Shown here: positions 1,641 to 3,150 of the stretch, piece after piece
Layout of the letters: the number at the start of each line of letters is the position of its first letter
Numbering within the stretch: the first letter of the stretch is position 1
Origin: Escherichia phage PhiR63_2
Length of the DNA stretch: 48,138 bases
Sequence record: PV340574.1
Strand: one strand, 5' to 3'
The notes under the pieces: generated by a model
The model's input: only the letters and a program-made list of their open reading frames with translations
Database searches by the model: none
Told to the model about the DNA's origin: nothing
Program-made: the position numbers and the translations under genes

Positions 1641-1880
1641 CTATTTCCTGCGCATGTCACGTAACTTCTTAATGTGTTCTGCCGTTTCGATCTCTTCTGC
1701 TATCCGATCTGCATCAGCTTTATTCACAGGTTCAAAGTCATGATTAAAGCGGAACATGCTGGCGATACATGTTCTGCCTTTTCGGATGTAGTGAACTTTG
1801 TTGTGGGTAGAACGCAGGATTTTGCAGGGAGTGCCGTGGTGGTCGACGTACCAGGTGTTAGGGTCAATCACTCTGAACAT
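1641..1880 (-). CDS. Hypothetical early-left protein (79 aa)
   Basis: ORF in operon orientation with its neighbours, overlapping the next gene's end by 17 nt; no recognised family. Confidence 0.45.
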   Translation of the reverse strand: MFRVIDPNTWYVDHHGTPCKILRSTHNKVHYIRKGRTCIASMFRFNHDFEPVNKADADRIAEEIETAEHIKKLRDMRRK

Positions 1881-2193
1881 TCTTGACCTTGTGTTGTGCG
1901 GATTGATATTCAGTGCTGATATTCACCTTTATAGCGAACACCTTTACCGGTTTATCGCCAAAGTGCGGATGTGTGATTGTCTTCACTTCATATCCGTCAT
2001 ACGGAACATCAATTCTGCGACTGGAATCGTCGCGCTTCGGATATCCCTTTGTGATAATCAGGCGGTCATATTCCCGGAACATAATTCGCTTATTCCAGTA
2101 GTCATTACACAAGCGATACTCTTCCGTTTTCTCTCCGCGAATCATGGCATCGAAGTATTCACTTTTAACAGCAAGTTGCAGGTTAGCCATCAC
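1864..2193 (-). CDS. Hypothetical early protein, possibly ASCH/PUA-like fold (109 aa)
   Basis: ORF with an N-terminal segment (LAVKSEYFDAMIRGEKTEEYR) reminiscent of ASCH domains; assignment is tentative. Confidence 0.5.
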   Translation of the reverse strand: MMANLQLAVKSEYFDAMIRGEKTEEYRLCNDYWNKRIMFREYDRLIITKGYPKRDDSSRRIDVPYDGYEVKTITHPHFGDKPVKVFAIKVNISTEYQSAQHKVKNVQSD

Positions 2194-2411
2194 TTAATCC
2201 CCCTTTGTTTGCGGATAAGCTCCAGATCTTGCTGGCAACTGGCGCAAGTCCGACAACCCTGAACGGCCAGGCGTCTTCGTTCATCTATCGGATCGCCACA
2301 CTCACAACAATGAGTGGCAGATACAGCCAGGTAGTTCAGGCGGCGCATTTTTATTGCTGTGTTGCGCTGTAATTCTTCTATTTCTGATGCTGAATCAATG
2401 ATGTCTGCCAT
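2190..2411 (-). CDS. TraR/DksA-family C4 zinc-finger protein (73 aa)
   Basis: CxxC...CxxC pattern (CCECGDPIDERRRLAVQGCRTCASC) typical of phage TraR-like proteins; 4-nt overlap with the downstream ORF. Confidence 0.7.
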   Translation of the reverse strand: MADIIDSASEIEELQRNTAIKMRRLNYLAVSATHCCECGDPIDERRRLAVQGCRTCASCQQDLELIRKQRGIK

Positions 2412-2797
2412 CTTTCATTAATCCCTGAACTGTTGGTTAATACGCTTGAGGGTGAATGCGAACAATAAAAAAGGAGCCTGTAGCTCCCTGATAATTTTGC
2501 TTTTCATGTTCATCGTTCCTTAAAGACGCCGTTTAACATGCCGATTGCCAGGCTTAAATGAGTCGGTGTGAATCCCTTCAGCGTTACCGTTTCGCGGTGC
2601 TTCTTCAGTACGCTACGGCAAATGTCATTGACGTTTTTGGAAACTGCTGTCTGACTTTTTTGATTTCAGAATTAGCCTGACGGGCAATGCTGCGAAGGGC
2701 GTTTTCTTGCTGAGGTGTCACTGAACAAGCCCCATGTCGGCAAGCATAAGCACACAGAATATGAAGCCCGCTGCCAGAAAAATGCATTCAGTGGTTG

Positions 2798-2989
2798 TCA
2801 TACCTGGTCTCTCTCATCTGCTTCTGCTTTCGCCACCATCATTTCCAGCTTTTGTGAAAGGGATGTGGCTAACGTATGAAATTCTTCGTCTGTTTCTGCT
2901 GGTATTGGCACAAACCTGACTCCAATTTGAGCAAGGCTATGTGCCAAATCAATACTCGTTCTTAACTCAACAGGAGATGCTTTGTGCAT
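2798..2989 (-). CDS. Hypothetical small protein (63 aa)
   Basis: ORF-track ORF in early-left operon orientation; no recognised family. Confidence 0.3.
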   Translation of the reverse strand: MHKASPVELRTSIDLAHSLAQIGVRFVPIPAETDEEFHTLATSLSQKLEMMVAKAEADERDQV

Positions 2990-3150
2990 ACCGCCCCCCG
3001 TTTATTATTTATCTCCTCAGCCAGCCGCTGGGCTTTCAGCGGATTTCGGATAACAGAAAGACCGTGAAATACCCAGCCTCGCTTTGTAACGGAGTAGACG
3101 AAAGTGATCGCGCCTACCCGGATATTATCGTGAGGATGGGTCATCGCCAT
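2962..3150 (-). CDS. Hypothetical small protein (62 aa)
   Basis: ORF immediately upstream of exo in the same orientation; no recognised family. Confidence 0.3.

Follow-up and report, generated by a model that had tools for sequence, protein, structure and literature searches.

Escherichia phage PhiR63_2 (sequence record PV340574.1) supplied the 48,138-nucleotide (nt) stretch that we call the window, and our concern here is with one small part of it, positions 1641 to 3150, where a run of short accessory genes, all on the minus strand, lies between xis (1265-1501, minus) and exo (3141-3821, minus). The first 5 kb of the window is the left early arm of a lambdoid phage, with every gene on the minus strand: int (133-1275, minus), xis, the accessory cluster, exo and, beyond exo on the same strand, bet, gam and then kil and cIII. 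One end of the cluster is the start of orf60a and the other is the stop codon of the accessory gene nearest xis. An original prediction, made from the letters alone, had placed an early-left accessory cluster between xis and exo at these very coordinates, and there it lies; the lambda b region, whose proteins the prediction had named as the matches that would count against it, is not this region at all but lies across att from it. The corresponding exo-xis region of lambda has been worked on by the Wegrzyn, Donaldson, Gourse and Court laboratories.

The relatives of this stretch are close ones. Over window positions 1500-3200, which match 299 phage records, Escherichia phage ev207 (NC_049949 / LR597636) is 100% identical and phage 21 (OL657228) is 96.8% identical (96.8-97.6% across comparisons). 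A prophage that sits next to icd in Escherichia coli UTI89 has the gene order of the window, and both it and ev207 are identical to the window over the whole of 1641-3150, including the small deletion with which most of what follows is concerned. Phage 21 shares the gene order and an attP/icd-type integration module, and differs from the window in having an intact orf61, whose product has 71 amino acids (aa) if an internal ATG is the start and 93 aa if the start is an ATG upstream of it.

How is it possible that a chain of genes should be interrupted at 2412-2797 by a stretch with no convincing open reading frame (ORF), as had been claimed? Alignment to phage 21 and lambda gives what we take to be the answer: the apparent gap is a known small gene, orf61 (2510..2721, minus), broken by a 4-nt deletion that has removed GGAT, on the coding strand, between window positions 2639 and 2638. 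The claim was right in that no long ORF is present, owing to this deletion, and wrong in that the stretch is not empty, for a 31-aa ORF, a 27-aa ORF and a hairpin also lie there; the accompanying advice to look for a frameshifted gene by aligning related prophages was well placed, since the phage 21 alignment shows exactly that. The deletion lies outside a homopolymer run, the nearby A6 run of orf61 being at 2656-2661. What remains open in the window covers positions 1-54 of the 101 of phrog_303, where the phage 21 protein covers 1-93 at 1.2e-42; a full-length match to phrog_303 that includes the C-terminal 41 residues is not obtained in the window. Those 41 residues (KNVDDICRSVLKKHRETVTLMGFTPTHLSLAIGMLNGVFKER) are the part that stays invariant among family members with very different N-termini, and in the window allele they are out of frame. 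In an AlphaFold 2 (AF2) model of a 71-aa family member (predicted local distance difference test, pLDDT, 77), the protein has three helices, and the loop that follows the first of them is where the deletion falls.

The broken allele is not a peculiarity of one phage. An identical 111-nt stretch bearing the deletion occurs in 118 complete E. coli genome records, those of UTI89, APEC O1, S88 and IHE3034 among them, and in three IMG/VR contigs; all six of the six deletion loci that were fetched carry one haplotype, and the comparison suggests that the deletion arose once. This is the only allele count in E. coli genomes that can be used, because the identity bands obtained with the lambda and phage 21 queries do not separate a 1-nt insertion or deletion (indel) from single-nucleotide polymorphisms. 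Elsewhere the gene is mostly whole: orf61 is intact in 163 of 188 loci, and its variation is of the coding type, with 21 of 42 variants synonymous; for a separate pattern scan of IMG/VR, which listed at least 120 rows, the count of intact alleles is a lower bound. As to the stretch in general, of 5426 complete E. coli genomes 3237-3243 (about 60%) hold at least one copy, with up to five in a genome, a frequency that shows the lambda-type exo-xis block to be widespread among E. coli prophages.

Lambda itself offers no intact standard. The orf61 of the lambda reference is frameshifted too, by an extra A and not by the 4-nt deletion of the window: the run reads A7 in lambda and A6 in phage 21 and the window. 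The annotated 61-aa "orf61" of lambda is a truncated form, as the literature has already pointed out, so that work done on "lambda orf61" bears on a truncated allele. Lambda and the prophage lineage of the window carry independent frameshifts in the same small gene. Among natural orf61 alleles, P0155, P0160, P0162 and P0193 contain a short out-of-frame segment that starts at or near the A-run and comes back into frame near GGAT-A5, and P0155 amounts to the extra A of lambda together with the 4-nt deletion of the window. This stretch, window positions 2634-2661, looks like a hot spot for indels, compensating ones among them.

What might an intact Orf61 be? The NCBI Prokaryotic Genome Annotation Pipeline (PGAP) treats the UTI89 copy as a pseudogene of 212 nt and labels it "cell division protein ZapA, frameshifted," and the ZapA name has been widely propagated among homologues. 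We could find no ground for it. The ZapA profile (PF05164) gives 14.0-18.5 bits, below its gathering score of 23.8, and the likeness is a weak and local one, of helix 1 of Orf61 to profile positions 15-48 only; a fold search with the 71-aa model returned nothing better than an E value of 1.1, with no ZapA chain among the PDB matches, and a sequence search of Orf61 against the PDB matched nothing but spurious DARPin repeats. ZapA would seem to be an over-annotation.

Two still smaller ORFs lie on either side of orf61 in the gap. The one downstream, of 31 aa (2418..2513, minus), is 100% identical to its lambda counterpart (L003, 2921-3016), and in intact alleles the stop codon of orf61 overlaps its start (ATGA in lambda, GTGA in phage 21). 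A review notes that ribosome profiling detected a 31-aa peptide (orf2313) in the matching part of lambda, next to orf73 (= orf2310); by its length and position we would equate the ORF of the window with orf2313. Its variable sites, 9 synonymous and 15 non-synonymous, show no synonymous excess. Inside it lies a terminator-like hairpin with a T-run (2461..2489, minus; a consensus scan placed the hairpin at 2489-2471), the same sequence for which a terminator, "t2," had been predicted in lambda and phi24B (Bloch et al. 2014); in those phages the amount of transcript differs from one side of it to the other. The stretch of the 31-aa ORF and t2 is no more stable than shuffled sequence (z = -0.7), and coordinates for the classical lambda terminators tL3 and tL4 were neither annotated in J02459 nor given in the papers that we found.

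The second of these ORFs, between orf63 and orf61, encodes a hydrophobic peptide of 27 aa (MTTTECIFLAAGFIFCVLMLADMGLVQ; 2718..2801, minus). It is identical in lambda (30925-31008), phage 21 and the window. Its start, as read, shares an ATGA with the stop of orf63, and its own stop overlaps an internal start of orf61 (GTGA in the window, ATGA in lambda and phage 21). Across 89 haplotypes its frame shows 13 synonymous and 12 non-synonymous variants, small numbers in which the common variants are synonymous; the competing frame, that of the N-terminal extension of the "93-aa" orf61, shows 5 and 11. The ORF has been called on 981 contigs and stands in databases as a hypothetical protein, and it is left without annotation in the RefSeq lambda, ev207, UTI89 and phage 21 records, and in the CPT annotations, that we examined. 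All this suggests that the 27-aa ORF is real and that the start of orf61 is the internal codon, the choice made by PGAP and by the annotators of phage 21.

No structured RNA came to light as a further occupant of the gap: when both strands of 1300-3400 were compared with Rfam at E <= 1, the sole match was a chance one to a microRNA (miRNA) hairpin (22 bits, against a cut-off of 90), which lends no support to a small RNA there, and a repeat search of 1400-3300 found only short two-copy chance matches.

Of the genes around the gap, the best understood is orf73 (2190..2411, minus), which encodes a 73-aa protein of the TraR/DksA C4 zinc-finger family. The original prediction had recognized a TraR-like zinc finger at this position, and profile searches agree, with PF01258 matched at 6.7e-9 (36.0 bits against a gathering score of 24.9) and phrog_54 at 2.5e-25; the score for TIGR02419, 55.1, is just under the cut-off of 59.7. 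The protein is 90.4% identical to lambda Orf73 and matches the TraR structures 5W1S and 6N57. Like lambda Orf73 and the TraR of the F plasmid, it has a length of 73 aa, an N-terminal DxxDxA motif (in the translation, D3-I-I-D6-S-A8) and a CxxC-17-CxxC zinc finger (C35-x2-C38, 17 residues, C56-x2-C59). The two extra cysteines of lambda Orf73 are present as well, and seven substitutions set the proteins apart. Lambda Orf73 binds RNA polymerase at its secondary channel and inhibits the promoters of rRNA and ribosomal-protein genes (Gopalkrishnan et al. 2022); it slows host growth, and it raises phage yield about four-fold. To judge from its translation, the Orf73 of the window keeps the residues needed for that activity on RNA polymerase.

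Upstream, next to exo, are two genes whose products belong to named families. The first, orf60a (2962..3144, minus, by RefSeq coordinates), encodes 60 aa from an ATG that overlaps the stop of exo; it is a DUF1317 protein (PF07026 at 8.5e-39, 131.6 bits against a gathering score of 22.3) and is 98.4% identical to the lambda protein. The second, orf63 (2798..2989, minus), encodes the 63-aa DUF1382 protein (PF07131 at 9.1e-29, 99.8 bits against 27), which is 88.9% identical to lambda Orf63 and matches the solved nuclear magnetic resonance structure of that protein, PDB 8DSB, at 2.1e-31. Sequence searches of the PDB gave no meaningful matches for Orf60a, the ASCH-like protein or the DUF4222 protein, the last two being described below. 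Within orf60a, at 3040-3085 on the minus strand, lies the hairpin predicted as "t1" in lambda and phi24B, where it reads GGCTGGG-TATTT-CCCGGCC; in the window it reads GGCTGGG-TATTT-CACGGTC, a weakened stem, and this same change gives the sole residue by which Orf60a differs from its lambda counterpart (P to H).

Between orf73 and xis are two genes that lambda does not have. The gene at 1864..2190 (minus) encodes 108 aa from an ATG at 2190, the likelier start and the one used in RefSeq, an alternative being a GTG at 2193 that would give 109 aa. A possible ASCH-like protein had been proposed for 1864-2193, and the ORF is real (phrog_625 at 2.5e-51; 377 homologues, most of them named "ASCH domain-containing protein" by NCBI). 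Is it an ASCH protein? The Pfam model PF04266 gives 14.3 bits, under its cut-off of 21.2 and over residues 7-29 only, and there is no NCBIfam match. The GxKxxExR motif is present as G20-E-K22-T-E-E25-Y-R27, invariant across 26 homologues, and in the AF2 model (pLDDT 82.6) it lies between H11-18 and E24-28. The top Foldseek matches of this model in the PDB are all ASCH/PUA-like (3iuw, 2z0t, 5gus, 1xne), with modest scores (probability up to 0.96, E 0.02-0.07, template modelling (TM) score 0.4-0.5). With the ASCH domain proteins Zymomonas ZmASCH (5GUS), E. faecalis 3IUW and human EOLA1, the product would share, by its model, a beta-barrel in which alpha1 stands between beta1 and beta2 and the motif occupies the alpha1-beta2 region; it differs from them in a sequence similarity below the Pfam threshold and in those modest fold scores, with TM 0.4-0.5. 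By motif and modelled fold we would call it ASCH-like with moderate confidence.

The last gene before xis (1641..1880, minus) encodes a 79-aa protein of the DUF4222 family (PF13973 at 3.6e-19, 68.5 bits against a gathering score of 27; phrog_285 at 6.3e-37), the exact protein being found on at least 1000 contigs under the RefSeq name DUF4222 domain-containing protein. The only DUF4222 member with a described role that we found is RgdR (ECs1581), a prophage regulator of type III secretion in enterohaemorrhagic E. coli (EHEC) O157. The likeness, drawn from domain and description, is that both are small prophage-encoded proteins with a DUF4222 domain; the differences are that RgdR has an RGD tripeptide, absent from the protein of the window, and that its host is EHEC, which strains carrying the window type of prophage, such as UTI89, are not.

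With these assignments, the "three or four small ORFs" once left without identity turn out to be orf60a, orf63, orf61 and the DUF4222 gene, for which there is a literature and, for Orf63, a structure; the hidden Markov model searches (Pfam and PHROGs) that had been recommended show, by the values given above for DUF4222, DUF1382 and DUF1317, that these are not chance ORFs. The kind of region, non-essential genes of the early left arm, had been named rightly. The suggestion of anti-defense genes found no support: none of the nine proteins (all ORFs) matched in a PADLOC scan, for defence or anti-defence, and the characterised member, Orf73, acts on host transcription.

Compared with lambda, the region is a mosaic. 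The two phages have the cluster in the same position between exo and xis and on the same pL strand, with the same order of orf60a, orf63, orf61, the 31-aa ORF and orf73 and the same predicted t2 hairpin; apart from the weakened t1 and the different lesions in orf61, they differ in that ea22, ea8.5 and orf55 of lambda have given way in the window to a gene for an ASCH-like protein and one for a DUF4222 protein. The two sequences are homologous (96.6% of nucleotides) from window position 2200 to past 5000, and left of 2200 the sequence is of the phage 21 type only. Because lambda homology stops at about 2200, the mosaic joint must fall where orf73 ends, at its 3' side. To the right of it (about 2200-3150) stands a block held in common with lambda, with orf60a, orf63, the 27-aa ORF, orf61, the 31-aa ORF and orf73; to the left (1641-2190), in place of ea22 and ea8.5, stand the ASCH-like and DUF4222 genes, a module of the phage 21 type. 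Of the "conserved five" genes of the review, ea22 should follow orf73, a place that the ASCH-like and DUF4222 genes take here; the review itself describes the downstream part of the exo-xis region as variable.

What, then, would such a cluster do? The gene identities, their conservation, the start-stop overlaps and the frameshift are established directly, and pL expression and phenotypes of orf60a, orf61, orf63 and orf73 are documented in the lambda and phi24B literature. By analogy with those phages, the cluster would be transcribed from pL under N antitermination after induction or infection; as in lambda, its genes would be translated as a chain through their start-stop overlaps, and the products would be small proteins that modulate host physiology and the balance between lysis and lysogeny. 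Orf73 would enter the secondary channel of RNA polymerase as TraR does, shut down the promoters of rRNA and ribosomal-protein genes and raise phage yield. The deletion in orf61, in the loop past the first predicted helix, shifts the C-terminal 41 residues out of frame. We regard it as very probable that positions 1641-3150, so understood in mechanism and with orf61 as a pseudogene, belong to a lambdoid prophage of the phage 21 kind and make up its exo-xis accessory region, the distal and non-essential part of its leftward early (pL) operon; in the lineage of this phage, orf61 has most likely become a pseudogene, inactive or reduced in function, and the same would hold, by way of another frameshift, for the lambda reference genome.

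Several points weigh against this account. Transcription, coupling and function in the window are transferred from lambda and phi24B. The published reading of Orf61 as homeodomain-like found no significant fold match in the PDB with the 71-aa model. Deletion of lambda's own truncated orf61 still gave phenotypes, in lysogenisation and in induction, and the truncated product may therefore not be inert. Might the shortened product of the window, then, be a functional variant that consists of helix 1 only, whether of 38 aa (GTG at 2721) or of 60 aa (ATG at 2787)? One could take the persistence of the allele in those 118 complete genome records as the mark of a kept function, and the 60-aa product has been deposited as a protein in several genomes, to which the effects of deleting lambda's similarly truncated gene may be added. 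Yet the part of the family that is invariant is the very part that the window allele has lost, structure modelling of truncated lambda Orf61 in the review suggested loss of the fold, and the list of carriers (UTI89, APEC O1, S88, IHE3034 and others), together with the single haplotype, points to clonal inheritance and not to selection. We judge a functional short Orf61 unlikely. That the gap might instead be mainly a regulatory spacer, in which t2 and a possible internal promoter set the levels of orf73 and of the genes downstream while the small ORFs are incidental, is a view that is partly true as regards t2, and one that we find quite improbable as a whole. It can call on the terminator-like hairpin, on the prediction in lambda and phi24B of t2 and an overlapping promoter (p1) across which messenger RNA levels change, and on the lack of synonymous excess in the 31-aa ORF. 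But orf61 varies as a coding sequence does and is intact in most loci, the 31-aa peptide is reported to be translated in lambda, the hairpin is not unusually stable in its context, and the predicted -10 element is substituted in the window (TTTTATTGT vs TTTTATTAT), where a scan found no minus-strand promoter.

There is also the question of whether the frame might be restored. The lesion might be bypassed at the A6G run (2655-2661), some 20 nt upstream of the deletion, either through a -1 slip of the ribosome or through a slippage mutation of +1, and orf61 would then be expressed at a low or switchable level. The arithmetic is attractive, for a -1 slip on AAA-AAA-G gives ...EIKKSQTAVSKNVNDICRS..., the exact sequence of the natural in-frame 70-aa member P0155 (the 4-nt deletion together with an A7 run); it is at this A-run, too, that lambda departs from the window, and in several other Orf61 members one frameshift in this stretch is made good by a second. 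The run is not, however, in the canonical A-AAA-AAG frame, six A residues are few for efficient slippage, and simple reading of the letters reveals neither a strong Shine-Dalgarno-like element upstream nor a stable hairpin downstream. The compensated allele is rare besides, being one cluster member and none of the three deletion-bearing IMG/VR contigs, and we hold a bypass to be very improbable indeed. As for the deletion being an error of sequencing or assembly, which can be said of any single record as a general possibility, we give the idea practically no credence and have rejected it: the 118 E. coli records, independently assembled, and the three IMG/VR contigs carry the identical sequence, and the deletion lies outside a homopolymer run.

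Over and above the pseudogene reading, a more venturesome proposal can be put forward in two parts. The 27-aa ORF may be a gene for a translationally coupled membrane micropeptide, in which case orf61 would start at the internal Met/Val and encode 71 aa, not 93 or 61; and orf61 may be a contingency locus, in which the A-run and the GGAT-A5 stretch gain and lose bases and so toggle the C-terminal module, with the allele of the window in the "off" state and a single +1 slip able to revert it. That at least one of the two holds we consider somewhat doubtful, and what expectation we have lies mostly with the micropeptide.

Beyond correct annotation, the significance of all this is small. The block is an accessory one that has already been studied, its genes, frameshift and terminator have each been annotated or published, the NCBI pipeline had already flagged the pseudogene, and the region is an ordinary one. 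What seems worth attention among the by-products is the 27-aa hydrophobic ORF with its overlaps on both sides, along with the unsupported ZapA name, which neither profile nor fold tests uphold, and the truncated state of the allele used in lambda work.

A few minor observations remain. At the left end of the window, positions 1-130 begin with the 3' end of an icd-like fragment, after which come a terminator-like hairpin and YYTTCCCCAAAA in three repeats; these features match the attP annotation of phage 21 and mark an icd-integrating int/xis module of the phage 21 type. In the 140-nt intergenic gap between xis and the DUF4222 gene there is, at 1595-1633, an AT-rich inverted repeat, its stem of 16 bp having only three G-C pairs, which a terminator scan flagged on the plus strand and which gave the chance match to a miRNA model in Rfam; we found no function for it. 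In GenBank J02459 (29000-31400) every exo-xis coding sequence bears the product label "xis (excision;72)," and PDB 8DSB, the structure of lambda Orf63, has inherited from it the molecule name "Xis (Excision72)," a propagated annotation error. Finally, the lambda-type (A7) orf61 stretch occurs at 100% identity in assemblies of unrelated bacteria (Shewanella canadensis, Bradyrhizobium frederickii, Chromatium weissei, Pseudomonas spp., Oceanobacillus, Kitasatospora and Paenibacillus), in several cases on contigs of about 48.4-48.5 kb, which looks like contamination of public assemblies with phage lambda DNA, used as a spike-in or cloning control.

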